32,000 nt of DNA. Source: Cuniculiplasma divulgatum. GTDB lineage: Archaea > Thermoplasmatota > Thermoplasmata > Thermoplasmatales > Thermoplasmataceae. The position numbers and the translations under genes were made by a program. The stretch spans positions 1,110,001 to 1,142,000 of the forward strand of contig NZ_LT671858.1 of assembly GCF_900083515.1 (NCBI RefSeq), written 5' to 3'. Below are positions 634 to 24,678 of this stretch, piece by piece; the stretch's first letter is position 1, and each line of letters begins with the position of its first letter. The notes under the pieces were generated by a model that worked only from the letters and a program-made list of their open reading frames with translations, made no database searches and had not been told where the DNA came from.

Positions 634-638
634 TTTAG

Positions 639-1760: not shown

Positions 1761-1764
1761 AAAA

Positions 1765-8357: not shown

Positions 8358-8954
8358 ATGGCGATTAAATTACGCAAAAGTGAGGATGACAAACAATTTG
8401 AGACGAGAAGCAAAATTAGAAATTACAAATCTCAAATAGACAGAGGGCTTAAAAGACAGCAACAGCTTATGGCTCAGGCCATAGCCAACATTAAAAAAGC
8501 AGCATCGATCAAGGATAAAAAAGGGATGCTGAATGCAGCACAGAATGCAGTCAGAATAAAAAGTTCGGTGGAGTATCTGAAGAGCTTTTCACTTTATCTG
8601 GATAATTTGGAAATAACATTTGAATTTGTATATAACGAAAGGCGAAACAATGAAATATTATCTGATGCAAACAGGGAACTTAATAAGAGAATGCTCTCAG
8701 AGGAACAGGCAAGGCAGATTGAAAATAACATCCAGGCAATAAACCAAAAGACAGAGGATTTAGAAAGAAGACTTGAGGATCAGTTTGGTAACATAAATCA
8801 GAGTCTTGATGAATTTGCTGCAAGAGGAGGAGAAAACGTTGATGAGGTAATAGGAAGCATATTAGGTCAAAATCCACCAGAGAATCAGGAAAAATCAAAT
8901 AATGAAATCGATGATCTCATAAATAAAATAATGGGGGAGAATACAAAAACATAA
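8358..8954 (+). CDS. ESCRT-III / Snf7 (CHMP/CdvB)-like helical protein (tentative)
   Basis: 198 aa and all-helical by composition, with a basic N-terminal half and an acidic C-terminal half. The core …IDRGLKRQQQLMAQAIANIKKAASIKDKKGMLNAAQNAVRIKSSVEYLKSFSLYLDNLEITFE… parallels the CHMP2-type pattern …IKKMAKQGQMDAVRIMAKDLVRTRRYVRKF…. The protein ends in an acidic amphipathic helix (EIDDLINKIMGE). Assignment is by eye only. Confidence 0.5.
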   Translation: MAIKLRKSEDDKQFETRSKIRNYKSQIDRGLKRQQQLMAQAIANIKKAASIKDKKGMLNAAQNAVRIKSSVEYLKSFSLYLDNLEITFEFVYNERRNNEILSDANRELNKRMLSEEQARQIENNIQAINQKTEDLERRLEDQFGNINQSLDEFAARGGENVDEVIGSILGQNPPENQEKSNNEIDDLINKIMGENTKT

Positions 8955-8958
8955 TGAT

Positions 8959-11355
8959 TCATAGAGTGAGAAGCCATCCAAAGAATAGCTTGAATGCGTA
9001 ATTTGTTTCTGGATCATATGGTATCCTTAGAATTCCATTTATTTCCTGTGACTCAATGGAGGTTTTTCCCTGTTTATCAGTTTTTATCTTTATGCTTGGT
9101 CTTAGGTAGATGGTGCTTGATTTAATACGGCTCTCGATTACTTTTCTTGTTTCTGGTAAAAGCATAACAACTTCCCTTGGTGTCTGACCCTCAAGATCCA
9201 GTGTTCCCAAGGGAAAATTGAATAGAACGAAACAGAACTTCGGATCTGGAAGATCATTTTTCCTGTTATCAAGAATATTCTTGAGTATTTTTACAATTTT
9301 AATATCGTAATTTTTTAAATCTGAGTACATTGAATGATCTATAAATATGGCATAGGCCTTTCCATTGCTGAGATTATCTTTGAATTTTTCTGACTCCGTT
9401 TCAAGAGTTATACCCGACCAATCTACTATGGTCAAATTTCTGAATGTACTTTCATTTTTTGGCTTCAGGAGGATAGATATTTTATTACTTTTCCCATTTT
9501 TATTTTTCTCCGGAAACTGACTATTTACGATTATGCTATTTAGAAGTGATTCCATTAATTCTATGCCACTGGTTATATCCCAGGTGAATTTTGTATCAGA
9601 TGAAAGCGCATCTATGTAGTTTAAGAAGAATGCGAGAAAGGTAGTCTTGCCTGAATTTTCTGGTCCTACTAAACTCAGTGTACTATAACTCTCACTATTC
9701 ACCCCATACAGAACACCATATTGATTTGTTCCCCTGGAAATCATCGACTCCTCGTATTGCTTGTATCCCGAGCGGGATGTTTCATCAAATATAGAAAATC
9801 TTAAAGGCGTTGATATAACAGAAGCTGCATAGGAAATAGCCATTACAGTAAGGATGCTAACCAAATAGGTTATTCCAGACGCATGCACAGAATTGAAATT
9901 GGGAATGTAAACTGTTAAAATGAAGTAAATGCCGATTATTGAGGCCATCATTCCACCTTTTCTGGTGCCAGGAGATATGGTTCCACTCAAAATATACGCC
10001 AAAGCGAAAAGGATAAGAAGTATTATAAGTGAAATTGTCAGTGGTATCCAATTTATTCCACTATTGTACTGGAAGAACAGGGTTCCCTTATTGAAAAGCT
10101 TTTCAAAGAAAGGTATTTTCTCAATGATCATGGTAAAAAAAAGAAATATGAGAATAAATGAAAATAAAAGACTCGACATATTAAGGATTTCGTTCCTGAT
10201 TTTTGATAGCAGTCCTCTTGTTATTAGGTAGGTTGTGGAAAGAAATAGAATAATCAGGAAACCAGATTTAATTAGATCTGAAATAAGGATAAGGGAGATT
10301 ATGTCTCTAATTAGGAAAAAAAGAGAATAATAAACAACGACTGGACCGGAGGAGAATGACCCTGAGAAAAGCAAAAAAATAAAGATTGCAATAAAACCTG
10401 TTAGAAAGGAGAATACATAGAGTGTTGTCTTTGCATTGGACCACTTCATTCTGTAACCCGCAGCAGATGATATTGCAATGATTAGTGAAAACGAAGGAAA
10501 CCAGAGAAAAAGATACTCAAAAAATGTAATAGGTGAAATCACTGAAACGAGGCCAAGACTACTATTAGTATTTAGAATAAGTGCCAGTAGTATCATAACT
10601 ACGGCAGGCCCAGATGAATTTATTAGGAATACTGGATCACTATCAGATTCCTTAAATCGAAGAAAGTACCCTATAAGAATCATAACGAATAATGAAAATG
10701 GCAACAGGTAGTACAGAATCTCCTGATGTGGAATGCTTGGATATCCCACATATATCTCCATGGAGATAAATATCAGGATTATTGTTGAAAAGAACGCTGA
10801 GAAATATGAAATCCTGATTCTCTGTAGAATAGTAAGAAATTTGCCCTGTATCCCAACAAGCAATAATATGCCGGAGAATCCAGATATTGCAAATGCGGAA
10901 ATTATGAGATAAAATAAAGTTTCAGTACCGTTAGAAATTGATTTATATGTCGTCCCTAGAGCCAGTAATGTAAGTACCCTGATAAGGAGCAATATGATTA
11001 TATAAGAAATTGAAGAGAATATAAATTTGTACAGTCTCTTTATAACGATCTGATTTCTCACGCCCACTATGTATTTTTTTAGGTAGGCGAATAATCTACG
11101 CATTAAAAATGTATAAATAAAAATTGCAAGAAATATTTTTGATATTAACGGAATTCCAACATGACTGTCTATACCAAGAAATGTTGCAATTGATCTTTCA
11201 ATGTTTGCGTTCAGGTGAATGCCTCTGGAATTCAGATAAAAGTATGTAATTAATAGGTACAGAATGAAAAAGAGTGGTGATATTATTCTAAATATTTTGT
11301 GTAAAGCCCTGATGTCAAGTTTTTGCTCTCCACTACCTTTGAGATCTCTATTCAC
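8959..11355 (-). CDS. Polytopic membrane protein (about 520-aa multi-TM N-region) with C-terminal degenerate P-loop GTPase-like domain; paralog of the 14448-16127 product
   Basis: 798-aa ORF with a GTG start 1 nt after the upstream stop. Walker A/G1 is GPENSGKT (nt 9643-9666) and the G3-like motif is DWSG (nt 9412-9423). The G2 Thr is absent (FPEKN versus FPELT in the paralog) and G4 is absent (LFNFPLG versus LFTKTD). The C-terminal domain aligns by eye with the 559-aa paralog: GKTTFLAFFLNY…SGIELMESLLNSI…FPE versus GKTTFLAYFFHF…SGIDLMEEYINRI…FPE. Confidence 0.75.
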   Translation of the reverse strand: MNRDLKGSGEQKLDIRALHKIFRIISPLFFILYLLITYFYLNSRGIHLNANIERSIATFLGIDSHVGIPLISKIFLAIFIYTFLMRRLFAYLKKYIVGVRNQIVIKRLYKFIFSSISYIIILLLIRVLTLLALGTTYKSISNGTETLFYLIISAFAISGFSGILLLVGIQGKFLTILQRIRISYFSAFFSTIILIFISMEIYVGYPSIPHQEILYYLLPFSLFVMILIGYFLRFKESDSDPVFLINSSGPAVVMILLALILNTNSSLGLVSVISPITFFEYLFLWFPSFSLIIAISSAAGYRMKWSNAKTTLYVFSFLTGFIAIFIFLLFSGSFSSGPVVVYYSLFFLIRDIISLILISDLIKSGFLIILFLSTTYLITRGLLSKIRNEILNMSSLLFSFILIFLFFTMIIEKIPFFEKLFNKGTLFFQYNSGINWIPLTISLIILLILFALAYILSGTISPGTRKGGMMASIIGIYFILTVYIPNFNSVHASGITYLVSILTVMAISYAASVISTPLRFSIFDETSRSGYKQYEESMISRGTNQYGVLYGVNSESYSTLSLVGPENSGKTTFLAFFLNYIDALSSDTKFTWDITSGIELMESLLNSIIVNSQFPEKNKNGKSNKISILLKPKNESTFRNLTIVDWSGITLETESEKFKDNLSNGKAYAIFIDHSMYSDLKNYDIKIVKILKNILDNRKNDLPDPKFCFVLFNFPLGTLDLEGQTPREVVMLLPETRKVIESRIKSSTIYLRPSIKIKTDKQGKTSIESQEINGILRIPYDPETNYAFKLFFGWLLTL

Positions 11356-11356
11356 T

Positions 11357-12784
11357 TCACGACCTGTGTCTTATATTTTCTGCTATTTCGATAACATTCT
11401 CCATCTCTACCCTTGTTATCTTGTCTGTTCCCCTTAGAGAAAAATTAACTGAAAGTGCTGATAACCTGTTTTCAAGGTTTTCGTCTCCCTTTACATAATT
11501 TTTTAGTTCGTCAATAGCATTAACAACCTTTCTTACCTCCATTGTTTGTATGTCTTTGATCAGGATATCGATACTGTTTTCTCTTCTCTGCTCTGGCTTT
11601 GTAGCTTTAACAGAGGGTTCTTCAGTATCACTGCTGTGAACGATTACACTGGTTTCCTTTTTCGCCTCGTTTATTTTACGTTCAAATATGGCATCAAGAG
11701 TTAACTCTCCCCTCCAAAGATCTGAAGCTTGCAGCTCTACTGTTCCCTTTAGATGACCACTTGTTTCGGGGATCAGTCTTGATTCTAATTCTCTGTAATC
11801 ATTTATCTTCAGGTTTGACAATGATATTTTTGTTTGACCAACCACATCAAATGAGCCCAAAAGTCCGTTAAGATTTATGACAAGATTCTCCATGTCCACT
11901 ATGGGTCGGATCTTAAACACCAAAGAAAACTCCTCTCCTTCTCGAAGTATGCCAGAGAGTGAATATGAGACTGACATTTTAACGTAATTGGATGGATCGT
12001 TCGTAGAATCCACGATGGTAAAAATTGCATCGCGTACCATATCATTCAGATAGGCATAATCTCCGTTGTGCTTGAATTTAATCATATAATCTGGTATATT
12101 CAGTTTTCTGAGATTTATCCGCTCGTCGTTATCTGAATATTTGATCAACTCCTGAATGGCCTTTGTTGCCCCAACCCTCGAACACATTAAAATTATGATT
12201 GCTTTAATCTGGGGATCAGCTGAGTTCAGAGTTGAAAGGAGAGTTGATTCAAACTTCTTATAAATATCCGGCTTATAAGAACAGCATTCAAGAACGAATA
12301 TACCTGATGATAAAGCCAGTTCTGTTTGATCTGATGACATGTTTTTTACAGCCTCTGGAACATATATTTCGAATTCGTCTCTCCATGACTGTTTGACGTA
12401 CTGACTCATTTCTGTAAAACCCTTTGTTCTGTCTTCAATAACATCTGACTTGAATAGATTGATAAGCGATTCAAGATCTCTGTCCCTTTTCTTCTCTCTT
12501 TCTTCTTGCTCCAGCTTAGAAAGTGAATTTTGGAAATAAACTAAGTTCTTTTCATCAATCTTCCTGCTTTCTATTATGCCTCTTAAGGATATGAGCAGAT
12601 TGCTAAGAAGTACCTCATCACTTGGATTTTTGAATGTTGACTCTATGAGTGTCCTGACATATTTTATGTTATTTCTCTCTACAGGTGTTATATCTCTCCT
12701 TTTCTCAATTTTCTTGCATTCTTTAAAAATTCTTGTTGCAAGTTCCTCCTTGCTCTTAAATATATTTTCTTTTGCCATTCTCAT
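11357..12784 (-). CDS. Soluble protein of unknown function: N-terminal helical (HEAT/ARM-like) region, central beta-rich region, C-terminal helical tail
   Basis: 475-aa ORF with an ATGA overlap with the upstream gene. The segment …SADPQIKAIIILMCSRVGATKAIQELIKYSDNDE… resembles a HEAT-type repeat. Residues ~270-370 alternate in a beta-strand-like pattern (VSYSLSGILREGEEFSLVFKIRP…GTVELQASDLWRGELTLDAIF). There is no catalytic motif. Confidence 0.65.
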   Translation of the reverse strand: MRMAKENIFKSKEELATRIFKECKKIEKRRDITPVERNNIKYVRTLIESTFKNPSDEVLLSNLLISLRGIIESRKIDEKNLVYFQNSLSKLEQEEREKKRDRDLESLINLFKSDVIEDRTKGFTEMSQYVKQSWRDEFEIYVPEAVKNMSSDQTELALSSGIFVLECCSYKPDIYKKFESTLLSTLNSADPQIKAIIILMCSRVGATKAIQELIKYSDNDERINLRKLNIPDYMIKFKHNGDYAYLNDMVRDAIFTIVDSTNDPSNYVKMSVSYSLSGILREGEEFSLVFKIRPIVDMENLVINLNGLLGSFDVVGQTKISLSNLKINDYRELESRLIPETSGHLKGTVELQASDLWRGELTLDAIFERKINEAKKETSVIVHSSDTEEPSVKATKPEQRRENSIDILIKDIQTMEVRKVVNAIDELKNYVKGDENLENRLSALSVNFSLRGTDKITRVEMENVIEIAENIRHRS

Positions 12785-14451
12785 CCTCTCAGTCTGAATC
12801 TGCGCTTTTCAGTTGGTTCTTCATCACCACCTATCATTTCCACTATAATATTGTTGAGTTCTGGTGGAATTAGAACCTTTCTTTTTACCAATCCTTTCTT
12901 TACCTGCGTGATGAGATTGTACATCTTTTTCTGATCAAATACTTCATTGTTTTTTGCAATAATTTCTAAAACTTCCTTTAGGAATTCTAAATCTTCAAAT
13001 TTGTTTTCAACTATAGATTCCTCAACCAGTGAGAACAGGTCTTTCCTTGCAATATCGAAACTCTTCAGAATGGAAATGCTCTGATCGATCTCTGTTGGCG
13101 TCATCTTCCTGCTTGTAGAATATTTTGACCACGTCCTGAAAAGTGTTGGTATTGTGGTAAATAAAGTTCTGCCCATGTTTACGTTTGAATCACTTTTCAA
13201 CATGTTTTCAACCAGAATCTCATTTATCTTTCCATAATTCGATAAACTTATATTCTTTAGGAACTGAACGAGATTTCTACCACCTACAGTATTTGGGTCA
13301 CACTGTATCAGCACAGGCATCATGTTGTCAATTAGATCAGTGTCGTATCCCTTTGCCTTTTCCTCCTCAACGTTATTTTCAAGATACTTTACAGTAGCAT
13401 CAATTAGATCGTCTCTGAATCCACTTTTTCTAATAATATCGCTTACTATCTTGAAATATTCTTCCTTTGGTCCATATGATTCCATATTTGAAACTTTCAA
13501 TGCTGTGTTAATTGCCATTGATGGCTCAGCATTGTTGCATATAGATTTTACTATTCTTGATATAAATATGTTGGCCAGAATTGTTCTATTACTACTCTGC
13601 GGTAAGTCGTCTGATTTTCCTATATCGTAAACTTTTCCTGTCTCAATTAGTCTAAAATACTCATTTGATACAGATCTTATGAGGCTATCTTCACCTGGAA
13701 TTTCAACATTCTTTCCATTATAATTTATGATAACATTTGAACTATTATCAGTGGAAGGGAGTGTACACACCAGATCAAAAATTCTTTCTTCCTGCGAAGG
13801 CGGATAATCATATGTAGAATAAGTGAGTACTATCCATGGTGGAAAAAGACTCTCAAGAGTCATTATTTGCCTGAACATGGTAGTGATATCAGTGGATATA
13901 ACACCAATTTTTATCTGGCTTTGGAAAATATTCAGGAAAATACCATAAAGTGCATCTCTGGAAAATTCTCGATTTTTATCTGATATTAATTCTTCTCCGT
14001 AGGACTGGTCATTTACATCTATCTCTATATTAACTACTGGAAGTTGCATAAAATTGCCATTAGCCAGTTTTAATTTTTCTATGTCCTTAACCGAAGCAAT
14101 ACCTTTCAAATGATGTCTGTCCAGTTCCTCAAGGTTCTTTCTTGCCTCGACAAAATTCTTAAAATCAAAAATAAGGAAATGACTCATCAGGGCTCCATCC
14201 CTTCCATGTATGTCTTTTCCTATATTTTTTACATAGTTCATTGCGACTTTTCCAGACGGTAATGTTAACAATCTTCTGGATTCCTTAAATGCGATGTTAT
14301 TCAGACCGATTGGTATACTGTACTTTTCTATGTAGCTAAAGTCCTCTTCACTTAATGAGGAACTCTGTGTAATGAACTGATATCCTGACCTCCCTTTTTT
14401 TTCCGCCCAACCATAAAGAACCTGGTCTGCAACAATGCTAATTAGACTCAT
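12781..14451 (-). CDS. Soluble protein of unknown function; N-terminus resembles the GTPase-associated protein 1 (GAP1) N-domain pattern (tentative)
   Basis: 556-aa ORF with ATGA overlaps at both ends. The N-terminus …DQVLYGWAEKKGRSGYQFITQSSSLSEED… resembles the 'QLxYT…GLxGxxGFQxxAxSxGL' opening that I recall for GAP1-N domains. There is no P-loop or TM segment. Confidence 0.6.
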   Translation of the reverse strand: MSLISIVADQVLYGWAEKKGRSGYQFITQSSSLSEEDFSYIEKYSIPIGLNNIAFKESRRLLTLPSGKVAMNYVKNIGKDIHGRDGALMSHFLIFDFKNFVEARKNLEELDRHHLKGIASVKDIEKLKLANGNFMQLPVVNIEIDVNDQSYGEELISDKNREFSRDALYGIFLNIFQSQIKIGVISTDITTMFRQIMTLESLFPPWIVLTYSTYDYPPSQEERIFDLVCTLPSTDNSSNVIINYNGKNVEIPGEDSLIRSVSNEYFRLIETGKVYDIGKSDDLPQSSNRTILANIFISRIVKSICNNAEPSMAINTALKVSNMESYGPKEEYFKIVSDIIRKSGFRDDLIDATVKYLENNVEEEKAKGYDTDLIDNMMPVLIQCDPNTVGGRNLVQFLKNISLSNYGKINEILVENMLKSDSNVNMGRTLFTTIPTLFRTWSKYSTSRKMTPTEIDQSISILKSFDIARKDLFSLVEESIVENKFEDLEFLKEVLEIIAKNNEVFDQKKMYNLITQVKKGLVKRKVLIPPELNNIIVEMIGGDEEPTEKRRFRLRG

Positions 14452-16127
14452 AAGTCTCCTACCTCACTAATCCAGTTTGCAATTAAGATAAAACCTGAGT
14501 TTAGTTGAGGATCGAAGTTTATTCCGTACATTCCACCCACACCAAGATCTAACTTTGGAACAATTTCTCCATTTTGATCCCTTTCAGTCTTTATGAATAT
14601 CTTGAATGCTGATGGATTCTTTATGTTTTTTGTGATATATGCATAGGTATTTCTCAATAATTTTAAGAGGTCAATTGCTGAATAATTAAATACTGCGTCA
14701 GGAAGTGTATCTGTTTTCGTAAAAAGGAATGCTATATTTGGACGGCTTTTTTTGTCCACCCTTGCATTAAGAATGGTTTCAATGATTCTTCTGTATTGTA
14801 GATCCCGTGTAGCCCACTCACGGTATGAAGAACAATCGATCATTACCAGATATCCTTTTGCTTTCAGGAGGTATTCAAATCTTGTATTCATCAACATTCT
14901 CCTTACATTATCGGGACCACCCTGAAGACTGTTAAACGTTTCCCCAGCAATGTCGTTTATCCGCAAGTATATTCTATTTGATCCAAATCTTTTCTTCTTC
15001 GTGAATTGAAAGACTACCTCACCAACCCTGTCTTTCGCAGTGAGTTCTGGGAACTTGTGTTCGGAAAATATCCTGTTTATATATTCTTCCATAAGGTCTA
15101 TTCCACTCACAACATCTGCTTCCACGTTTATGGCCGCTTCAATGTCCTGCAAAAAATGAAAAAAGTATGCAAGGAATGTGGTCTTACCGGCTGCTGGTGG
15201 TCCGATTATGGCAATTGCGTCTTTCTGTTCATATTTAGTGTTTATAGTTGATACTGCATTTCTCTGCTGATAATTAGTCTGATTTTGACTGCTATTGACC
15301 TGTTGCTTTTGATTTGCTGACTGATTTTTATCACGGTTAAATTCAGGCTTGTACCCCTCATTAATAACCGGATCTCCTGCCATTGACATCGTATTAGTTA
15401 CATTGGTTTCTGCAATACCAGTATTGTTTTTGACAATCTTCATATGAAGCACCTTAGTTGTATGATAATTCACCATAAACAATAAAGCTATTAAGATTTC
15501 TGTGAATTCAATAAAATATATAATATTATAATTAAAAATTGTTGATCCTGACGATAAGATTACACCCATATATGCAAGTATAGAAAGTGTACCTACAACT
15601 CCTGTAGCACCTCTTATCCCGGGTGTAGATACTGACAATAATGTCCCAACCGATACTGTAAAATATATGGGATACCAGAGTATTTCAAGATAAAAGATTT
15701 GAGCATAGGAAGTACTATTATGCAGGAATCCTATTCCTGCTAGACTAACCAGGGTGCTGATAAACATCCCCAGTCCTGTTAGGAATGATACCATTACATA
15801 TCTCCTTGAGGCTTTGGAAAAGTTATGATTTATGGCAGCAGTAACCCTTCTCATCCTTGAAATAGAAGATGAACTTAAAAACATAAAAATAAAACCGATA
15901 TAGGGTATCATTGATAGAATCACATAAATTCCAGTTTCAACGGAACCACGGGAGAGGTTTCTATAATAAATCTCCTGAGAGCCCAGTATCTTCTTATTGG
16001 CCTCTTTGACATAATGACTTATTGAAAGATACCATGATAAGAGAACGAGAGAACACACTACCGTGAGAAATATGACTAATCCAATCTCTTCACCATATCC
16101 GAACTGGTTAAGTGGAATTCCTGGCAT
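14448..16127 (-). CDS. Membrane-anchored (about 6 TM) P-loop GTPase with complete G1-G4 motifs
   Basis: 559 aa. About 6 hydrophobic helices fall in residues 15-220, followed by an N/Q-rich linker (NRDKNQSANQKQQVNSSQNQTNYQQRN). G1 is GPPAAGKT (nt 15180-15203), the candidate G2 is FPELT, G3 is DIAGE (nt 14943-14954) and G4 is TKTD (nt 14709-14720). Start is ATG, and the stop overlaps the next start (ATGA). Confidence 0.8.
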   Translation of the reverse strand: MPGIPLNQFGYGEEIGLVIFLTVVCSLVLLSWYLSISHYVKEANKKILGSQEIYYRNLSRGSVETGIYVILSMIPYIGFIFMFLSSSSISRMRRVTAAINHNFSKASRRYVMVSFLTGLGMFISTLVSLAGIGFLHNSTSYAQIFYLEILWYPIYFTVSVGTLLSVSTPGIRGATGVVGTLSILAYMGVILSSGSTIFNYNIIYFIEFTEILIALLFMVNYHTTKVLHMKIVKNNTGIAETNVTNTMSMAGDPVINEGYKPEFNRDKNQSANQKQQVNSSQNQTNYQQRNAVSTINTKYEQKDAIAIIGPPAAGKTTFLAYFFHFLQDIEAAINVEADVVSGIDLMEEYINRIFSEHKFPELTAKDRVGEVVFQFTKKKRFGSNRIYLRINDIAGETFNSLQGGPDNVRRMLMNTRFEYLLKAKGYLVMIDCSSYREWATRDLQYRRIIETILNARVDKKSRPNIAFLFTKTDTLPDAVFNYSAIDLLKLLRNTYAYITKNIKNPSAFKIFIKTERDQNGEIVPKLDLGVGGMYGINFDPQLNSGFILIANWISEVGDL

Positions 16128-16136
16128 TATGTTAGC

Positions 16137-16141
16137 TCACC
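16137..16141 (-). promoter_or_regulatory. Shine-Dalgarno-like (A)GGTGA(G) 9 nt upstream of the ATG at 16127
   Basis: The reverse complement of 16136-16142 is aggtgag. It lies in the only sizeable gap (97 nt) within the five-gene operon. Confidence 0.35.
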
Positions 16142-16224
16142 TGTGGACCTTTTTTTGTATTCCTCATCTTCGAGCAAACATTGCAAAAAATCCATGGAAT
16201 GTAATGAAGATTTTGTATAAATAA

Positions 16225-18087
16225 TCACTTTTTCTTGAATACTTCTTCATCCTGAACTTTTGACTGAATTCCAAGACCTTCTTTTTCCATTAACTTCCAT
16301 ACGTATATTACGTCCTTGCTACTGCAGTCTGTCATCTTTCCTATGGATTTCAATCTTGCAATACCTGAAATCTTCAATTCGTCAAGTGTCTCCCTTCTTA
16401 TCTTTTCTATCTTATCCTTGCCTGGAGGTTGATCCTTTGCCATAAGTATATTACTGATCTCTACTGATTGACTGTTATTTTCGTTAAAATAAACATTACC
16501 ATTTCTCATATCTCTAAGCAGTAGCAGGAAGTTCTTGCTATCAACTCCATTATTTGATGAGTTCTTAACCTGATCAATCACACTATCTTCAAAACCATTT
16601 GGAGAGCCTATAACTGCTATAATGTAGGAATTTTCCATGTTGGAAGTTTCGATTAAAACACCCAGTATTCTTGCAAGATCAATATTATTAAATGGGTGCT
16701 GATCTATTCCTATTCCCATATTTCCTTCCTTTCTGTAAATCTCGGATTCATGAACATTATAAATAAAGGCCACTCCTATCCTGACATCATTCCTCAGAAA
16801 CCTTCTCTTCTGGTAACGGTACATTATTGCCCTACTTTCTACTGCATATGTTCCATCTCCACTCAATTCGTACATTTCTGAGAAAGTGTTTCTGTTAATT
16901 ATGTCCTTTACCTTAACACCTCCTTCAAAATCCATTCTTGGGTTGGAAAGTCTTATGGATTTTTCGTCTGTGAATAAGGATTCTGCTGTTTCGAAAAATG
17001 CAACTTCTCTTATCCTTGCCTCTTCTTCAGTACAGGCAAATGTGGAGTCAAAGGCTCCTGTTCCACTTTTTCCTGACACTGCAATGAGTTTTTTGAGCGT
17101 ATTCAGGGTACTAATCTGCGATTCTATATCATTTTCCATTTTATAGTTTGAATCCTGGATCAGTGATTGAATCCTCTTTACTTCTATTTCCCTTAACTCT
17201 GGATTGCCTGATATGTCAGGGTCTGAATTGAGTCTACCCATTTCATTCTCCAATTCGTTTATCTTTCCTTTCATTTTAATTTCAAAGGTCTTCAATTCCT
17301 TCAATGGAGACTCAATGTCAAAACTTTTAAGTGAAGCCATATCTCTGTTCTTCAGGAGGACTGTTGCTTCCATAACCTTGTTATAAATCTGATCAAGTTC
17401 ATTTCCCGATAACATTTCTGTTAATTCATTCTCTATTTTAGATCTCTTATTTTCCAGATCCAGTGAAATTTTCAGGACTCTTTCATAATTGTTAAACAGT
17501 TTCTTAATCTGACCTGGATCAATCTGAATAAACGAAATGACACCTTCGGTAATTTTCTGGAACCTGTTTCTGTATTTTTCCTCCATAGCCTGAGAGATCT
17601 CCCCTCTAACATTTTTTCCTGATAGTATATCTATGGTGGAAAGGAAATTCTCCATATTCTCATTGTACCATTCCTTGATAAGCCTGTATATCTGATCATC
17701 CCTGTTTATTAGTAGTGTCCTTATGGACTCACTGTTCATTGAATCTATTTTTGAGAAATGTTCAAGTTTTTCTACAGCCTCATATTCATCATCAGTAAAT
17801 TTCCTTACGTACTGTTCTATTTCCTGATCATCTATTGTTTTATTTTCAGATTCTTTCCTGAAAGAGAGTGATATCTTTAGCTGTGCCAGTTTTATATTAG
17901 CCAGAGCGCTCTTCGCCATTTCCATTCCAATTTTATCGCTGCATCTGGTTCCTATGGTTGAGTAATAGTTATCAAGATCTCTCATCATTCTCTTTCTGCC
18001 ACTCGTGTCCATTGTAACAATGTCCATGTAATCTCTTCCAGCCTCCTGAAGAGCTCTCCTGAAAATTGTAATGCATTCACTTTCCAT
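16225..18087 (-). CDS. Large soluble protein: about 340-aa coiled-coil-rich N-half, globular C-half, possible C-terminal winged-helix-like tail; unknown function
   Basis: 620-aa ORF with ATG start. Heptad-like K/E/L-rich stretches run through residues ~60-335. The C-terminus …ISGIARLKSIGKMTDCSSKDVIYVWKLMEKEGLG… looks wHTH-like. There is no bona fide Walker A. Confidence 0.65.
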   Translation of the reverse strand: MESECITIFRRALQEAGRDYMDIVTMDTSGRKRMMRDLDNYYSTIGTRCSDKIGMEMAKSALANIKLAQLKISLSFRKESENKTIDDQEIEQYVRKFTDDEYEAVEKLEHFSKIDSMNSESIRTLLINRDDQIYRLIKEWYNENMENFLSTIDILSGKNVRGEISQAMEEKYRNRFQKITEGVISFIQIDPGQIKKLFNNYERVLKISLDLENKRSKIENELTEMLSGNELDQIYNKVMEATVLLKNRDMASLKSFDIESPLKELKTFEIKMKGKINELENEMGRLNSDPDISGNPELREIEVKRIQSLIQDSNYKMENDIESQISTLNTLKKLIAVSGKSGTGAFDSTFACTEEEARIREVAFFETAESLFTDEKSIRLSNPRMDFEGGVKVKDIINRNTFSEMYELSGDGTYAVESRAIMYRYQKRRFLRNDVRIGVAFIYNVHESEIYRKEGNMGIGIDQHPFNNIDLARILGVLIETSNMENSYIIAVIGSPNGFEDSVIDQVKNSSNNGVDSKNFLLLLRDMRNGNVYFNENNSQSVEISNILMAKDQPPGKDKIEKIRRETLDELKISGIARLKSIGKMTDCSSKDVIYVWKLMEKEGLGIQSKVQDEEVFKKK

Positions 18088-18116
18088 TTTATTACAAAAA
18101 TAAAAGCACTTACCCC

Positions 18117-18126
18117 TTTATATTAA
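18117..18126 (-). promoter_or_regulatory. TATA-box-like element (ttaatataaa on minus strand) about 34 nt upstream of the ATG at 18087
   Basis: Its position is consistent with an archaeal TATA at about -27 and a very short 5' UTR for the five-gene operon. This rests on the motif only. Confidence 0.3.
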
Positions 18127-18150
18127 TTTCTACATCATGAAAAGAATAGA

Positions 18151-18159
18151 TTTATTTAA
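18151..18159 (+). promoter_or_regulatory. TATA-box-like element (tttatttaa) for the 286-aa / Vps4-like operon
   Basis: It is centred about 34 nt before the ATG at 18189 and only about 22 nt before the TTG at 18177. This favours 18189 as the real start. Confidence 0.25.
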
Positions 18160-18176
18160 GTGAGATATTATTAACA

Positions 18177-19037
18177 TTGAGGAAGAGTATGGAAAATGAA
18201 ATTTTTAATAAAATTACAAATCTAGAAAGTTTGATGAACAGGAAAGTCATTATTTTAAAGACGAGGCTCAAGAACCTGCAGTCACTCGATGAGGATACTG
18301 TACAGCTTGCCTTTTCCGTATTAAAGAAGTTTTTTCCGAAAAGAGATGAAAAAAATTATGGAAATATTGAGACAATTTTTTTAGTTTCAGGATACTGGCC
18401 ATACAACTCCCACTGCACTAATTCCCTTATTGAATTTCAGAAAAGATTCGATTATGATACAATTGCAGATGGGACTGTAGGTGGTGGTATGACCTTATTT
18501 TTTAAAAGTGGAAGGAAGAGGTTCAGAAAGAAGAACTCAATAATTTCAACCATTAACATTGAAGAAATAATACAGGATTTCAATTCTACAATACTCCAGA
18601 ATATGAAATCTTTCGTTCCTGAACTGACAGACCAGCAAAATGTCCCTGTCAGAGAAATCCTGAAGAATTATTCCGCAGATAAGGTTCTTGATGTGGATTT
18701 GATAGACCAGATAAATATAAACAAAATATATAAGAATTACATTGAATCCATGGGAAAGAAGATCTCTATCCTGACTGGAAATTCCGGAAGTTATAAGGAT
18801 ATCGTGGATGAATTTGGTAACTGTCCTTATGTGGGCGAAGGTATTGATGAATACCTAACACAGGAACAGGAAAATGGGGTGAATGAAATTGTCGATTTCA
18901 TTGACGAAATAGAAACGGACGAAGTAATGAAATCAAGGGATTTCAGGAAGCAGTGGATAAAGATATATTCAGGTAACTCGATGTTCTCAATTTATCTTGA
19001 TAACCTTGGAGCTGTTAGGGAGATAAAGAGTATATGA
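18177..19037 (+). CDS. Hypothetical protein co-transcribed with the Vps4-like ATPase (start may be the ATG at 18189 rather than the TTG at 18177)
   Basis: 286-aa ORF that stops 14 nt before the AAA ATPase start. It has an acidic C-terminal third (…VNEIVDFIDEIETDEVM…). I recognise no domain. Confidence 0.6.
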   Translation: MRKSMENEIFNKITNLESLMNRKVIILKTRLKNLQSLDEDTVQLAFSVLKKFFPKRDEKNYGNIETIFLVSGYWPYNSHCTNSLIEFQKRFDYDTIADGTVGGGMTLFFKSGRKRFRKKNSIISTINIEEIIQDFNSTILQNMKSFVPELTDQQNVPVREILKNYSADKVLDVDLIDQININKIYKNYIESMGKKISILTGNSGSYKDIVDEFGNCPYVGEGIDEYLTQEQENGVNEIVDFIDEIETDEVMKSRDFRKQWIKIYSGNSMFSIYLDNLGAVREIKSI

Positions 19038-19051
19038 GGGAGATTTAGAAC

Positions 19052-20149
19052 ATGGAACATGAAAAATTAAGGGAATTGCTGGAAAAAGGTCTGAAGGCTG
19101 AATACGATGGTGATAGAAAAACAGCACTGTCTCTCTACAGCGATGCAGTATTGATACTAAACGATGAACTTAGAACGGATAACCAGATAAAAAAGGAGAA
19201 AATACAGAGACAGATGAAATCTATCCAAACTGCTATTACGAGGTTAAAATCGGGTGAATCTTCGGGAAGCAGAGAGGATGCAGACGGGATCAAAATACTT
19301 GAAGAACTCGGACTGACACTGGAAAATGGCAATGGCCCCACCATGGATGAGGTTGCCGGTATGACAAAGGTAAAAGAAGAAATGTACACACAGATAATAT
19401 ATCCATTGAAATTTCCAGATCTGGCAAAAGAATTCAATATAAAATTTGGAGGTGGGATACTCTTATATGGTCCTCCAGGAAATGGTAAAACATTCCTTAT
19501 AAGAGCACTGGCAAGAGAGGCAAAGATGAATTTTATCTACGTTAATCCTTCAAGCCTGTTCAGCCAGTGGTTTGGTAATTTTGAAAAGAATATTACTAAA
19601 CTGTTCAAAGCGGCTAAAGAACTGTCTCCCTGCATTCTTTTCTTTGATGAACTTGATAGCCTCTTTCCATCCCGTGATCAGGTTAACAGTGATGCAGCGA
19701 GAAGAGGGGTTTCACAGTTTCTTAATGAAATAGGAGGGTTTTCATCTGATTCCTCAGATAGACCTGTAGTAATCCTCGGAGCAACAAACGTCCCATGGCA
19801 ACTGGACCCTGCAGTGACAAGGCCAGGAAGATTTGACAGGATGATTTACATTCCACCTCCCGACCTAGAAGCAAGGAAACTGATACTTCAACACTATCTC
19901 TCTAAAATAAAGAGACTTGGTAAGGTAGATGTTGACGAACTTGCTAAAAAGACCGAGGGTTACAGCGCGGCAGATCTTGAATATCTATGTAAATTCACGA
20001 CTCAGAAAGCCTTTTTGAGGGCTGTAGAAGGGAACAATGAAGAGTTCATAACAGATAATTCCATGAACGAAGCAATGCTTGATGTGAAGCCTTCCATTAA
20101 TCCTTCTGTTCTGCAAAGGTATAAAAGATTCATGGATCAAAGGTCATGA
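19052..20149 (+). CDS. MIT-domain AAA+ ATPase, Vps4/CdvC-like (meiotic clade)
   Basis: 365 aa. The N-terminal ~70 aa is MIT-like (…LLEKGLKAEYDGDRKTALSLYSDAVLILNDEL…IQTAITRLKSG). There is a single AAA module: Walker A GPPGNGKT, pore loop SQWFGNFEK (compare Vps4 SKWMGESEK), Walker B ILFFDELD, and the SRH/arginine finger region ATNVPWQLDPAVTRPGRFDR. The C-terminal …VKPSINPSVLQRYKRFMDQ resembles the Vps4/katanin/spastin C-helix region. Confidence 0.85.
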   Translation: MEHEKLRELLEKGLKAEYDGDRKTALSLYSDAVLILNDELRTDNQIKKEKIQRQMKSIQTAITRLKSGESSGSREDADGIKILEELGLTLENGNGPTMDEVAGMTKVKEEMYTQIIYPLKFPDLAKEFNIKFGGGILLYGPPGNGKTFLIRALAREAKMNFIYVNPSSLFSQWFGNFEKNITKLFKAAKELSPCILFFDELDSLFPSRDQVNSDAARRGVSQFLNEIGGFSSDSSDRPVVILGATNVPWQLDPAVTRPGRFDRMIYIPPPDLEARKLILQHYLSKIKRLGKVDVDELAKKTEGYSAADLEYLCKFTTQKAFLRAVEGNNEEFITDNSMNEAMLDVKPSINPSVLQRYKRFMDQRS

Positions 20150-20815: not shown

Positions 20816-21316
20816 TTAAGGACTCTCAAGAAATTCTAAATCATTTATTACATCAAAAATTTCTTTCTCCTGAGTTCTGCTCCCCCGTGACCTTATAGGT
20901 TCAACAACTTTCTTGTTTACTATGACAAACAACCAGGTTGAAAATGACATTATACCGACGTAAAGTGTGATGAATGATATTGTTACCGTGTATGAACCAC
21001 CTGTACTTATTGACTGAAGATAAGCCGTAGAAATGATAAAAAGCAGAAAAATTATACCTACCACTGATCCAGCTCTAGTATAAAATGAACCTGAAATAAA
21101 GAGTCCGAGTAGAAGTACTATTGACAAAAGTGTCACGAAATCCTCGCTCTTTAGAATTAACGGTGACACCAGATATAAGACTATAATAGATATTAAAACT
21201 GGCAGAAGTATATTTAATTTCGATAATTTTTCAGTCAAACTTAACCTCCATTTTAATGAGTTCTTTTGCAACATCCCATTCGTTTTTAGAAATAGAGAAT
21301 TTTGTAACTCCCGCAA
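20816..21316 (-). CDS. Small integral membrane protein (about 4 TM), unknown function; start uncertain
   Basis: The track ORF starts at a TTG (21316). The first ATG is at 21274 and another TTG is at 21238. All candidate starts overlap the 3' end of the upstream J-domain gene, by 86, 44 or 8 nt respectively. The hydrophobic core is LLPVLISIIVLYLV…, LLSIVLLLGLFISG…, VVGIIFLLFIIS…, ITLYVGIMSFSTWLFVIV. Confidence 0.5.
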   Translation of the reverse strand: MRELQNSLFLKTNGMLQKNSLKWRLSLTEKLSKLNILLPVLISIIVLYLVSPLILKSEDFVTLLSIVLLLGLFISGSFYTRAGSVVGIIFLLFIISTAYLQSISTGGSYTVTISFITLYVGIMSFSTWLFVIVNKKVVEPIRSRGSRTQEKEIFDVINDLEFLESP

Positions 21317-22088
21317 AAAAATCGTCGTTTTTCTTCAAAAGATAACTGTGAAACTTCATGAACTTCTGGATAACCCTGTATTCCTCTTCTGTTAACTTTA
21401 TCTTTTTGAATAGCCCTGCATTTACTTTAAGAAAGAGCTGAAGTATTAATTCTTCTTTCGATATTAGTTGCATACCTACTTCCATTTCATCTCTCGTTTT
21501 TGAGGTTTCAAGGATCTGCTTGATCTTTTTTGAATTGAAATAGTTTGTCTTTATTCCCATTGTGGATTTTTCCATTTGAAATGTACAGTATATGAAGAAT
21601 GCATCTTCAAGTGTGAGATTTCCAGCCATCGCTTTTAATTTCAGATTTTCAGAAAGCTTCTCAAATGTATTACTGGCCCACTGATGATCCGCCATATACC
21701 TTGAAAGGTTTACCATCCATTTATCTAACCTCTCTCGTTCAAGTTTTGTTCTGTTTTTTCTTTCTATGTCCTCGAAATTATCAAATGATGGCCCTTTAAC
21801 AGTGTTTTCCCTGGGAGTATTATCTCTTTTTGGATTTCTGGCATATTGCATCCACTTTTCTCTTTCATTCTTGGCCCTTTCCAGTGAAAGATCATAAACT
21901 CTCCTTTTACCTGGGTCTGATAAAACCTCATATGCTTCGTTCAACTGTCTTGCCATCAACTCGTTCATCGTGGCATCTCCCTTGGCCAAATCGGGGTGCC
22001 ACTTCTTTATGAGAACCTTATATGAACTCCTGATTTCGTCTTCTGATGCGGTTCTGGAAACACCTAAAAGAGAATAATAATCAAGCAC
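21231..22088 (-). CDS. J-domain protein (DnaJ-like co-chaperone, non-canonical C-terminal region)
   Basis: 285 aa with a GTG start. The N-terminal J domain is LDYYSLLGVSRTASEDEIRSSYKVLIKKWHPDLAKGD…[18 protein letters not shown], with the HPD motif. It has no G/F region or zinc-finger domain, and the C-terminal ~200 aa is unassigned. Confidence 0.8.
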   Translation of the reverse strand: MLDYYSLLGVSRTASEDEIRSSYKVLIKKWHPDLAKGDATMNELMARQLNEAYEVLSDPGKRRVYDLSLERAKNEREKWMQYARNPKRDNTPRENTVKGPSFDNFEDIERKNRTKLERERLDKWMVNLSRYMADHQWASNTFEKLSENLKLKAMAGNLTLEDAFFIYCTFQMEKSTMGIKTNYFNSKKIKQILETSKTRDEMEVGMQLISKEELILQLFLKVNAGLFKKIKLTEEEYRVIQKFMKFHSYLLKKNDDFFAGVTKFSISKNEWDVAKELIKMEVKFD

Positions 22089-22272
22089 TGTGGTGTAATA
22101 ATACCTCAGGTTAAATTACTTTTGTCCAGTGAAATGAATTTTTTAAACTTCATAATTTAGAATTAATTAATTTAATATGATCCATAATTTTCTTTTAAGT
22201 GCAAAACATTGTGAAATCCTGCTTAATAGTGAAAGAATAATTCTATAAAATATGACACTAAAATAGAAAAGA

Positions 22273-22280
22273 TTTATAAT
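22273..22280 (+). promoter_or_regulatory. TATA-box-like element (tttataat) about 25 nt upstream of the grpE ATG, preceded by a purine-rich BRE-like agaaaaga
   Basis: The spacing fits a leaderless or near-leaderless archaeal transcript for grpE-dnaK-dnaJ. This rests on the motif only. Confidence 0.35.
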
Positions 22281-22300
22281 GAAGAACATATTTACTTCCA

Positions 22301-22837
22301 ATGACCGAGACGTCCGATAATATGGAAATTCTTATTAATCCCATACAGAATTCCATAAAAAATGCCAAGAGAAGGAATTCCATGAGAAAAGTATCTGTAA
22401 AAATTGAAGATGATCAAATAGACGAGCTTAAGAAACGAAATAATGATTTACTTAGGAACCTAGCTGACCTACAAAATTATTTGAAGATATCTCAGAGGGA
22501 CTTTGAGGCACAGAAGAAAACTGCTGGAATGGATATTCTGAAGGGCCTTCTTCCATTTCTGGACACTCTTGATGCAGGAGTTGCATCTGAAAAGGATAAC
22601 CAGGTGCTGATTTCATTAAGAGATAATCTACTCAATACCCTCTCCAAATATGGTCTAAAAACCATTGAGGCTGAAGGGCATAAAGTTGATTTAAAACACC
22701 ACGAAGTTGTGGGAATAGTAGATGGGGAAGAAGAGAACAAGATAGTCCATGAGATTCAGAAGGGATACCTTTTGAATAATGAAGTAATCAGGACATCAAA
22801 GGTCATAGTACAAAAAAAAGGTGAAAAAATTGAGTAA
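22301..22837 (+). CDS. grpE: GrpE nucleotide exchange factor
   Basis: 178 aa. It has a coiled-coil N-part (…[29 protein letters not shown]…) and a GrpE-type C-part (…LLPFLDTLD…HEVVG…[16 protein letters not shown]). It lies immediately upstream of, and overlapping, dnaK. Confidence 0.85.
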
Positions 22838-24668
22838 AATAATAGGAATTGATCTGGGAACAAGTAACTCTGCAGCTGCGGTAGTAATATCCGGGAAACC
22901 AACCATAATTCCAAGTGCGGAAGGTATATCTGTTGGGGGTAAATCTTTCCCCAGTTATGTCGCGTTCACAAAGGATGGCGAACTTCTTGTTGGAGAACCA
23001 GCCAGAAGACAGGCACTTCTGAATCCGGAAGGTACCATTTATGCCGCAAAGAGGAAAATGGGATCGGATTATAAGTATAAAATTAATGGAAAAGAATATA
23101 CTCCACAACAGATTTCTTCATATATTCTCCAGAAAATAAAGAGGGATGCAGAAGCATATCTAGGGGAAACCATTTCAGAAGCAGTTATAACTGTACCGGC
23201 CTATTTTGATGATAATCAGAGGCAGGCTACAAAGGATGCGGGAACAATAGCTGGTCTTAATGTTAAAAGAATAATTAATGAACCTACAGCAGCTTCTCTT
23301 GCCTATGGTATAGATAAAGTAAATCAGTCTATGAAGATCCTTGTCTATGATCTTGGTGGAGGAACACTGGATGTCACAGTAATGGACTTTGGAGAAGGCG
23401 TTTTCGAAGTTGATTCCACATCGGGAGATACAAAACTTGGTGGAACAGATATGGATGATGCAATCATCAAATATCTCATGGATGAGTTCAAGAGAACGGA
23501 TAAGGTCGATCTAAGCAAGGATGAAAAAGCTAAGATTAGACTGAAAGATGCAGCAGAAAAAGCAAAAATTGAACTTTCAACAACTCTTGAGACAGAAATT
23601 AACCTTCCTTACCTTACAGTTGTTAACAATGAACCAAAGAATATGCTCATAAAACTCAAAAGATCAAAGCTCGAGGAATTAATCGCTCCTATAGTGGCAA
23701 GATCAAAGGAACCACTGGAGAAGGCTTTAAAAGAAGCTAACCTCACGAAAGATAAGGTTGATAAGATAATTCTCGTAGGTGGACCTACTAGAATTCCTTA
23801 TGTGAGGAAATTTGTAGAAGATTTCTTTGGAAAGAAAGCGGAAGGAGGTGTTGATCCAATGGAATGTGTTGCAATAGGTGCGGCCATTCAGGGTGCAGTA
23901 CTTACTGGAGAAATAAAAGATATTGTACTTCTTGATGTAACTCCCCTTACACTTGGTATAGAAACACTTGGAGGTGTAGCAACCCCAATCATACCAGCAA
24001 ACACAACCATCCCAACTCAGAAGTCACAGATATTTTCTACAGCTGCAGATGGACAGACCGAGGTAACAATACACGTTGTCCAGGGAGATAGGGCAATGGC
24101 AAAGGATAATGTATCACTTGGAATGTTTAACTTGCAGGGGATTCCCCCGGCCCCTAGAGGAATACCTCAAATTGAGGTAACATTTGATATAGATGCAAAT
24201 GGTATATTGACAGTAACAGCCAAGGACAAGGCAACCAATAAGCAGCAGAGAATTTCCATAGAAGCAAAGAATAAACTCAGCAAGGATCAGATAGAAAAGA
24301 TGAAGAAAGAGGCGGAGGAATTTGCTGAAGCAGATAAGAAGAGAAAAGAGGAAATTGAAAAGGTAAATCTTGCAGAAACACTGGCATATACTACAGAGAA
24401 GACCATAAGTGAGAACAAGGATAAGATAGATCAGAAGGATCAGGATGAAGCAACTGAACTTATAAAACAGCTAAGAGATGCAATAAAGGATAATGATGCT
24501 GAAAAAATCGACTCTCTCTCGGAGGAGCTGTCAAAGAAAGCGCAAGCAATTGGAATGGCAATGTATTCAAAGGCACAGGAAAATCAGTCCCAGCAGTCTT
24601 CAGAAACACCAGATGAAACGAAAGATCAGGAAAATGGTCAAACCGAGGGTCAGGAAGAGAGTCAGTAA
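22821..24668 (+). CDS. dnaK: Hsp70 chaperone DnaK
   Basis: The Hsp70 signatures are unmistakable: [60 protein letters not shown]. The track start is a GTG at 22821. A TTG at 22830 would give the canonical [12 protein letters not shown]-terminus. Either start overlaps the grpE stop. Confidence 0.97.
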
Positions 24669-24678
24669 GTGATAGAAT

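Follow-up and report, generated by a model that had tools for sequence, protein, structure and literature searches.

Genomic linkage of a predicted DO-GTPase/GAP1-N2 membrane switch with ESCRT-III-like and Vps4-like genes in Thermoplasmata

DO-GTPase/GAP1 systems were defined computationally as the predicted core of conflict systems, and Cuniculiplasma divulgatum was named among the few archaeal occurrences of the systems described (Kaur 2020, eLife e52696). The endosomal sorting complex required for transport (ESCRT) of Thermoplasmata has been characterized as minimal, comprising Vps4, ESCRT-III and an arCOG07400 beta-barrel protein, with unknown function (Makarova 2024, mBio e00335-24). Gammaproteobacterial psp operons also encode a DO-GTPase family protein, which was predicted to act in membrane-related stress (Ravi 2024, mSystems e00847-23). 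Neither Kaur 2020, the text of which contains no occurrence of Snf7, ESCRT or Vps4, nor Makarova 2024, which does not mention the GTPases at the C. divulgatum ESCRT locus, connects the two archaeal systems, and a full-text search on the family names found Ravi 2024 alone to be relevant beyond these two papers. Here we describe a locus of C. divulgatum at which both systems are encoded together, within a stretch of 32,000 nucleotides that was analysed as a whole (the window). An earlier note, made from the letters of this sequence, knew of no characterised system with such a gene set; the parts have already been described, and the new result is the linkage between DO-GTPase/GAP1 and ESCRT-III/Vps4 genes.

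The conserved set consists of a transmembrane (TM) DO-GTPase, a GAP1-N2 protein, a 620-amino-acid (aa) protein (p620), one or more ESCRT-III-like proteins and Vps4. Among 28 loci recovered (labelled L001 to L028), ~15 Thermoplasmata lineages keep these five families together. Because they stay together through inversions and changes of flanking genes, functional coupling of the GTPase switch and the ESCRT-III/Vps4 genes is very probable. That they form one module, with a DO-GTPase/GAP1-N2 membrane switch coupled via p620 to an ESCRT-III polymer and Vps4, is slightly better than an even prospect and is the reading developed here. The features of the locus in the window are as follows.

8358-8954, plus strand: ESCRT-III-like gene (198 aa; open reading frame (ORF) map)
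8959-11355, minus strand: second membrane GTPase paralog (798 aa; ORF map)
11357-12784, minus strand: HEAT/beta soluble protein p475 (475 aa; ORF map)
12781-14451, minus strand: GAP1-N2 protein (556 aa; ORF map)
14448-16127, minus strand: TM-anchored DO-GTPase (559 aa; ORF map)
16136-16142, minus strand: Shine-Dalgarno-like AGGTGAG, 8 nt upstream of the 559-aa ATG (16127), read directly from the sequence
16225-18087, minus strand: p620, adaptor candidate (620 aa; ORF map)
18113-18130, minus strand: TATA-like block GAAATTAATATAAAGGGG, ~34 nt upstream of the 620-aa ATG, putative operon promoter (from conservation)
18144-18159, plus strand: TATA-like block GAATAGATTTATTTAA, ~34 nt upstream of ATG 18189, putative promoter of the 282-aa/Vps4 unit (from conservation)
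18189-19037, plus strand: gene of a fast-evolving 282-aa protein (p282; listed as a 286-aa ORF, p286, from 18177; ORF map and orthologs)
19052-20149, plus strand: Vps4-like AAA ATPase gene (365 aa; ORF map)

Three gene arrangements were found. Type A (the window, L001-L019 and L021, which represent ~10 lineages at species level, Caldiplasma among them) always has the same order: p620, the GTPase, GAP1-N2 and p475, followed by the second GTPase or another gene where present, run in one direction, with Vps4 (preceded by p282 where present) diverging from the p620 end and ESCRT-III converging on the other. The outer flanks of type A come in three versions, namely MFS plus rhodanese/dnaK, aCPSF1 plus MarR/ABC, and extra AAA/ESCRT-III-like pairs. 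In type B (L020, L024, L026 and L027), whose GAP1 proteins are ~20-35% identical to that of the window, a more distant TM DO-GTPase gene is followed by GAP1-N2 and a small TM protein gene, divergent from an operon of Snf7 and a p620 homolog (E 2.5e-42); this Snf7 passes the Pfam threshold (31.3 bits, cut-off 27.3), and 0.1-2 kb downstream there is a Vps4 ortholog (281 bits). In type C (L028), a single co-directional operon, which converges on Vps4 (447 bits), combines a p620 homolog and genes for a small helical protein, the TM DO-GTPase, GAP1-N2 and a small protein with TM segments. An ESCRT-III-like gene is present in every type A or B locus long enough to contain one; the single type C contig encodes a helical protein without a Snf7 match and ends just upstream.

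The strongest reason to doubt that the synteny is merely frozen lies in these three rearranged architectures. The adjacency of GTPase, ESCRT-III and Vps4 genes extends beyond this genome, to every related locus recovered, in three arrangements and with differing outer flanks; for the core families, neither a loss of co-conservation nor an adjacency confined to C. divulgatum was found. The five-gene operon built on two GTPase paralogs, which the earlier note took as the unit, did not survive this comparison, as the 798-aa GTPase, p475 and p286 are lineage-specific. Evolutionary rates within the neighbourhood are uneven: its fastest-evolving genes are the 798-aa paralog (30% identity between the window and L001), p286 (~19%), p475 (44%) and, in its C-terminal region, GAP1 (37%), against 69% for ESCRT-III and 87% for DnaK.

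Several genes accompany the module in types B and C. A Ser/Thr kinase gene (505-523 aa) lies divergently beside the type B Vps4 (L024 13415-14986, L026 14075-15592 and L027 12908-14467); kinases accompany 'Main'-clade archaeal ESCRT systems (Makarova 2024) as well as certain GAP1-N2 systems (Kaur 2020). In types B and C, p620 is accompanied by two small families, an alpha/beta protein of 163-171 aa and a helical protein of 198-214 aa (L024 3961-4560 and 6481-6996; L028 26-517 and 2448-3092). In three type B loci, the C-terminal motif of the helical protein (LDKKIDEMIKEK in L024) is similar to the C-terminal helix in the window's ESCRT-III-like protein; an assignment of this 198-214-aa protein to ESCRT-III found no support in Pfam or the PDB and was rejected.

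At the level of gene layout, the eight ORFs have the positions and lengths originally given, and the compact minus-strand packing was confirmed, with a 1-nt spacer between the 798-aa and 475-aa genes and 4-nt ATGA overlaps at 12781-12784 and 14448-14451. The operon's one sizeable intergenic stretch is the 97-nt gap at 16128-16224 that carries AGGTGAG, again as first read. The 198-aa gene is convergent with the 3' end of the operon, 4 nt apart. Between p620 and the p282/Vps4 unit lies a divergent region of 101 bp with two TATA-like blocks placed back-to-back, their centres ~34 bp apart. Both blocks are kept in the window, L008, L009, L010 and L001 while neighbouring intergenic bases diverge, and they are retained even in L001, where protein identity is 55-61%. 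They are putative promoters of the operon and of the 282-aa/Vps4 unit.

The families guessed from the letters (ESCRT-III, Vps4, DO-GTPase, GAP1 and HEAT) were recovered by Pfam and NCBIfam profiles, ortholog matches and arCOG lists. For the 559-aa protein, Pfam DO-GTPase2 (45.6 bits) and DO-GTPase1 (41.0 bits) both exceed the cut-off of 27 (families PF19975/PF19993), and both domains are present in 17/17 of its homolog clusters. It has ~5-6 hydrophobic TM segments (residues 10-221) and conserved GPPxxGKTTFL, DIAGE (Walker B Glu) and TKTD motifs, and a zinc ribbon was not found in it. The Walker B motif of type B and C GTPases reads DVSGE or DASGE, and the type B GTPase has ~4 TM segments. The 798-aa protein has ~13-16 hydrophobic TM segments (residues 17-516) and sub-threshold matches to DO-GTPase1/2 (19.7 and 17.6 bits); no other locus protein besides these two has TM segments, in keeping with the earlier view of two polytopic GTPase-like proteins. 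Their C-terminal P-loop domains are indeed paralogous (BLASTP E 6e-20, 24% identity over 282 aa). Since the G domain of the 798-aa protein has lost the Walker B Glu (DWSG[IK]) and the [NT]KxD motif and kept the P-loop (GPENSGKTT), this protein is probably a pseudo-GTPase partner; it is confined to the window, L001, L002 and L008-L010.

The 556-aa protein is predicted to be a divergent GAP1-N2 domain protein. Its direct Pfam match falls below the cut-off (E 0.012, 16 bits versus 24), and GAP1-N2 is matched at the same position in 11/11 of its orthologs (best E 4.9e-4). A family profile search gathered 101 representative proteins, and Pfam GAP1-N2 was present in 35/49 of those tested (best E 3.5e-12). 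Conservation is concentrated in the N-terminal ~140 residues, and the remainder diverges quickly; no family match was found for the C-terminal ~400 residues. GAP1-M and GAP1-C gave no match in the 11 orthologs (E <= 1), and GAP1-M was found in 2/49 distant relatives. The GAP1 gene lies directly downstream of the DO-GTPase gene, in the same order, in all 28 loci. Two distant GAP1-N2 relatives, L022 and L023, have neither p620 nor ESCRT genes. L022 (8904-11578) encodes a short DO-GTPase and a GAP1-N2/SRA_ScoMcrA (modified-DNA-binding) protein beside a MmeI-type restriction-modification (RM) enzyme and an insertion sequence (IS) element, and is a classic defence-island version of the DO-GTPase/GAP1 family. 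In L023, the GAP1-N2 relative occurs with a TIG/Ig-repeat protein next to IS110.

Downstream of GAP1-N2, p475 is found in type A loci only and is absent from types B and C. HEAT_2 was matched in 6/10 p475 orthologs (best E 1.4e-5); the repeats give way to a beta-rich region and then to a helical C-terminal part, and a PDB profile search returned alphaRep/HEAT proteins plus weak coatomer-gamma and AP-1-beta matches. No fn3 (fibronectin type III, FNIII) match was found in the operon proteins; p475 carries its beta-rich region, and L023 has its TIG/Ig-repeat protein instead.

Homologs of p620 occur in all three architectures (E 1e-42 to 1e-97), where the gene is the co-directional operon mate of the GTPase in types A and C and of Snf7 in type B; a scan of metagenome contigs with p620 gave one fragment, of the same species. 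In an AlphaFold2 (AF2) model built from a 16-sequence alignment (predicted local distance difference test (pLDDT) 76.2), p620 has a helical/coiled-coil region (1-371), an alpha/beta domain (377-549) and a winged helix (557-618). The N-terminal helical domain is conserved. In Foldseek searches, the winged helix alone was matched (AspA, TubR, eS25, Zalpha and ESCRT-II 3cuq_B; probability ~1, root-mean-square deviation 2-3 A, E > 0.09), and several orthologs have weak winged helix-turn-helix (wHTH) Pfam matches. By sequence, p620 had no PDB match at E <= 10 and no Pfam family except the weak wHTH. Its alpha/beta domain, without a sequence or fold match in Pfam or the PDB, may be a new domain; the SPxG core of this domain is invariant over types A-C, reading GSPNGF in most of type A and SPTGF in B and C.

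The 198-aa protein is EQB68987, listed under arCOG07402 'ESCRT-III/Snf7 family' (Makarova 2024, mBio e00335-24). Its AF2 model is all-helical (pLDDT 72.7; helices 9-50, 54-111, 115-156, 161-169 and 180-194), with a basic N-terminus (16 K/R versus 6 D/E in residues 1-60) and an acidic C-terminus. The long alpha1-alpha2 hairpin, shorter helices and charge split, together with the published arCOG, favour the ESCRT-III-like reading first made from the translation. The top Foldseek matches of the model included CdvB2, CdvB, CHMP2A-CHMP3, CHMP1B and CHMP3 (probability 0.9-1.0, but E 0.06-0.6), with BAR domains interspersed among the matches. When the family was aligned by hhalign with its positional equivalent in type B, the Pfam-positive Snf7 family, the probability was 52% (E 1.5e-4) over 155 collinear columns. 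Identification as ESCRT-III by PDB sequence search was tried and rejected, the 198-aa profile giving chemoreceptor-like helices only (E >= 0.05). After a variable linker, the protein ends in a conserved helix, E[IV]DxLIxKIxG, that does not exactly fit the MIM1 consensus. Orthologs are 61-96% identical, making this the best-conserved part of the module.

The 365-aa protein is EQB68980, listed as arCOG01307 Vps4 (Makarova 2024, mBio e00335-24), and in the sequence list of the Vps4 tree the entries immediately before it are the Vps4 of Thermoplasma, Acidiplasma and Ferroplasma; a Thermoplasmata-specific Vps4 clade is described in the same paper. It has one AAA module (Pfam AAA 137 bits) with AAA_lid_3 and a pore loop 1 of QWFG. 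Pfam MIT matches its N-terminus weakly (19.5 bits, E 0.0011, cut-off 30) and was matched in 7/9 orthologs (best E 3.8e-4); an MIT-like domain plus a single AAA module, as in Vps4/CdvC, was the architecture first proposed. A search for MIT among PDB sequences found no match for the N-terminus. Because the NCBIfam CdvC model, aligned over residues 7-362, scores 220.5 bits against a cut-off of 650, the protein is assigned by profile as a Vps4-like paralog or clade member and not as a CdvC ortholog. IetA defence ATPase models also match it (123 bits, PADLOC). A defence-system call was rejected, the PADLOC matches (MkoA/MkoC at P-loop level, IetA and TRIP13 for the AAA protein) being generic. Extra Vps4-like AAA genes (33-39% identical) interleaved with 170-212-aa genes were observed at L004 11984-14987, L006 18237-21581 and L021 15991-18883. 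These pairs are probably counterparts of EQB69932/33 and EQB69935/36, which are sited elsewhere in C. divulgatum; as extra ESCRT-III/Vps4-like pairs within a few kb of the module, they make an ESCRT supercluster in some lineages.

The gene upstream of Vps4, noted earlier as co-transcribed with it and encoding a 286-aa protein, exists as an ORF at 18177-19037, and its start is likely to be ATG 18189 rather than TTG 18177, where the 286-aa call begins. The product probably has 282 aa because ortholog N-termini read MENEI, a GAGG lies just upstream of ATG 18189, and the 286-aa form is the sole queried locus protein missing from the protein collection. The gene lies 14 nt upstream of Vps4; its orthologs are 17-76% identical, and it is lineage-specific, being absent from L003, L004 and L018. 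Pfam, NCBIfam and PADLOC all gave no match for p282. The arCOG07400 members listed by Makarova 2024 (mBio e00335-24) include no Cuniculiplasma (Gpl) protein, and an assignment of p282 to arCOG07400, judged by the listed members, was set aside because C. divulgatum is absent from that published list.

The host was rightly guessed to be a wall-less Thermoplasmata-type archaeon, C. divulgatum being a wall-less acidophile of the Thermoplasmatales. No tRNA was found in the window and no neighbour matched an integrase or transposase family (Pfam), and GC content is 0.34-0.37 within the locus and 0.33-0.44 outside, so the absence of mobile borders and the flank-like composition both stand. Pfam-matching neighbours are all housekeeping genes: MFS transporters, rhodanese, a DnaJ-domain gene, grpE-dnaK-dnaJ, an SPFH/zinc-ribbon pair and complex-I-like genes. 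SPFH proteins have contextual links to ESCRT and PspA systems in the literature. At 88-2796 (plus strand), an unknown 181-aa gene is followed by one for SPFH/Band_7_1 plus double zinc ribbons (639-1760) and one for a zinc-ribbon protein (1765-2796). Unrelated genes fill the ~5.5 kb that separate this trio from the ESCRT-III gene; the trio is syntenic in L003 and absent near L006-type loci. Vps4 is 1-2 kb away from a minus-strand gene for a 285-aa DnaJ-domain protein and from grpE-dnaK-dnaJ, which together occupy 21231-25776. HSP70/GrpE/DnaJ is one theme of GAP1-N2 systems (Kaur 2020, eLife e52696); the adjacency of Vps4 and the dnaK region is lost in L006, L012, L014, L017, L021 and L024, so the HSP70 link is probably coincidence.

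If the five families do act as one module, the 559-aa GTPase would sit in the cytoplasmic membrane through its 5-6 TM helices, and its cytosolic G domain, judged by its motifs, would cycle GTP; in the Cuniculiplasma lineage it may pair with the 798-aa pseudo-GTPase paralog. The translationally coupled GAP1-N2 protein would bind the GTPase and read or set its state, as suggested by the co-evolution of the two families (Kaur 2020). Specificity could come from the parts that evolve fast, namely p475, p282, the C-terminal region of GAP1 and the 798-aa paralog; the first three of these could provide lineage-specific sensing or cargo contacts. With its alternating operon membership and winged-helix end, p620 could bridge the switch to ESCRT-III by winged helix and coiled coil. 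By homology, ESCRT-III would polymerise locally on the membrane and deform or cut it, and the MIT domain of Vps4 would bind the conserved ESCRT-III C-terminal helix and recycle the polymer. Membrane damage, an invader, or cargo and vesicle formation could each be the trigger.

Several points weigh against this reading. DO-GTPase and GAP1 are themselves computational predictions, and the activities of the components are deduced from their sequences. The ESCRT-III identity of the 198-aa protein is drawn from a published arCOG, a model of medium confidence, and profile and fold scores that are weak; the protein has no match to Pfam Snf7, and its family profile found no ESCRT-III match in the PDB. 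The MIT domain scores below the curated threshold and the C-terminal helix is a candidate MIM, and the bridging of switch and ESCRT-III by p620 is purely inferential. In Thermoplasma and Ferroplasma, related ESCRT-III/Vps4 loci are without GTPase, GAP1 and p620 genes, so ESCRT-III can do without the switch. Every linked locus is from a single class, Thermoplasmata, and from acid-mine or other acidic habitats, so that shared ancestry inflates the count of independent observations.

The same parts could instead make up an anti-invader conflict system, in which DO-GTPase/GAP1 senses a virus or other invader at the membrane and ESCRT-III/Vps4 is the effector arm, which would damage the membrane abortively, expel its infected portion or guard ESCRT against hijack by viruses. 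In predicted conflict systems, the effectors vary around a constant DO-GTPase/GAP1 core (Kaur 2020), distant relatives of DO-GTPase/GAP1 occur in defence or mobile contexts (the SRA_ScoMcrA fusion, MmeI-type RM enzyme and IS of L022; the IS110 of L023), and the fastest-evolving genes of the neighbourhood are those of the accessory parts named above; the IetA score of the AAA protein points the same way, though it is expected of any classic-clade AAA. However, every Cuniculiplasma-like genome recovered has the module at a stable chromosomal site, where it appears to be inherited vertically and has no integrase, no transposase and no tRNA close by, PADLOC found no match beyond P-loop-level similarity, and ESCRT-III is highly conserved, unlike typical variable effectors. 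Searches of IMG/VR viral contigs with p620, the GTPase and ESCRT-III found no relatives, and a viral origin or hijack was rejected on this basis. A conflict role is possible but rather unlikely; it overlaps mechanistically with the switch-and-polymer module and differs in trigger and purpose only.

Two further explanations are less probable still. A DO-GTPase/GAP1 cassette might have been inserted once beside ESCRT-III/Vps4 in a Thermoplasmata ancestor, leaving two uncoupled neighbours. Such an accident is consistent with the origin of all linked loci in one archaeal class and with the occurrence of each system alone elsewhere (ESCRT in Thermoplasma/Ferroplasma, DO-GTPase/GAP1 in L022 and L023), but it is made very unlikely by the persistence of five families in three rearranged architectures despite changing outer flanks, by the co-transcription of p620 with the GTPase (A and C) or Snf7 (B), by linkage that outlasts the fall of GAP1 identity to ~20-35% between types, and by the conserved divergent promoter blocks. 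A GTPase-regulated ESCRT-III/Vps4 apparatus for cytokinesis, as Cdv is in Sulfolobales, was among the earlier suggestions; TACK archaea do divide by ESCRT-III and Vps4, and a division role has been suggested for the minimal ESCRT of FtsZ-less Thermoplasmata (Makarova 2024, mBio e00335-24). This suggestion is highly doubtful for C. divulgatum because its genome has a full FtsZ machinery, including FtsZ, SepF and PRC-barrel proteins, and it has two further ESCRT-III/Vps4 pairs (Makarova 2024); moreover, neither CdvA nor a PRC-barrel protein was found at the locus, and a core division apparatus would not typically have accessory subunits that evolve fast.

The module of GTPase switch, p620 and ESCRT-III/Vps4 would probably serve to repair the membrane locally, or to bud or shed a patch of it, in a wall-less cell living at ~pH 1. 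Repair or vesicle shedding is suggested by vertical inheritance, the stable locus, the lack of viral relatives and the wall-less pH-1 lifestyle, whereas fast evolution and family ancestry point to a conflict trigger. A more specific and speculative version, which we regard as improbable, is a GTPase-gated budding and scission machine that makes or sheds vesicles, with an adaptin-like p475, p620 as nucleator in the role of ESCRT-II or CdvA, ESCRT-III and Vps4. If true, this would be the first prokaryotic ESCRT-III assembly licensed by a GTPase, and the DO-GTPase/GAP1 'conflict' core would be a general switch for the deployment of membrane polymers.

The linkage matters to both fields. DO-GTPase/GAP1 systems have been without a shown function or output, and here they are tied to the biochemically well-understood ESCRT-III/Vps4, which gives a concrete and testable one. 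For ESCRT biology, the locus suggests that a GTPase switch integral to the membrane, with a coiled-coil/winged-helix adaptor, may be a new type of regulator acting upstream, in a lineage whose 'minimal' ESCRT is described as having an unknown function (Makarova 2024). C. divulgatum can be cultivated, and it is small and without a wall, which makes localisation studies, proteomics of vesicles and reconstitution in vitro feasible. The bacterial link between PspA and DO-GTPase suggests that the principle may be general across the ESCRT-III superfamily.

Among known systems, Arf/Sar1 with adaptin/COP coats is a functional analogy only. It would share a membrane GTPase switch, a HEAT-solenoid-plus-beta partner (p475 in the window) and a membrane-deforming polymer, but no homology was shown, the window GTPase belongs to another TRAFAC family and is an integral membrane protein, and the HEAT matches are generic. 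With the Cdv system of Sulfolobales and Thaumarchaeota (CdvA-CdvB-CdvC), the locus would share an ESCRT-III polymer and a Vps4 of MIT-AAA type, a non-ESCRT recruiting protein, for which p620 is the candidate, and winged-helix modules in recruitment; the 198-aa model lies near CdvB/CdvB2 in Foldseek. In contrast to Cdv, the locus has no CdvA, recruitment would use a GTPase switch plus p620, the CdvC score is 220 versus 650, and FtsZ is present in the genome. The psp operons resemble the window in combining the ESCRT-III-superfamily protein PspA and a DO-GTPase family protein in one operon; known here from the account of Ravi 2024, they differ in being bacterial and in using PspA/PspF regulation in place of Snf7-type ESCRT-III plus Vps4, with no p620 or GAP1 reported. 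They may be taken as an independent hint that the DO-GTPase family works with ESCRT-III-superfamily proteins.

As in the minimal ESCRT of Thermoplasmata (Makarova 2024), Vps4 and ESCRT-III are listed proteins and a small uncharacterised gene lies directly upstream of Vps4; however, the published arCOG07400 list does not contain the 282-aa protein, and whereas the three minimal-ESCRT genes of Thermoplasma volcanium are contiguous and co-directional, ESCRT-III and Vps4 of the window are 10 kb apart with the GTPase operon between. The GAP1-N2 GTPase-centric systems of Kaur 2020 share with the window a DO-GTPase with the Walker B Glu, two paralogous GTPases, an N-terminal TM region, a GAP1-N2 gene directly downstream of the GTPase, and a constant switch core with lineage-variable partners, and several of their bacterial themes link that core with machines that form polymers or act as chaperones (tubulin, HSP70, kinase). 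They differ in that the C. divulgatum locus lacks zinc ribbons, a detectable GAP1-M or GAP1-C and a detectable FNIII-repeat component, in that its partners are ESCRT-III, Vps4 and p620, none of them mentioned by Kaur 2020, and in that it is chromosomally stable and not mobile. The locus can thus be read as a DO-GTPase/GAP1 system themed on ESCRT-III, Vps4 and p620, and equally as an ESCRT system with a GTPase front end.

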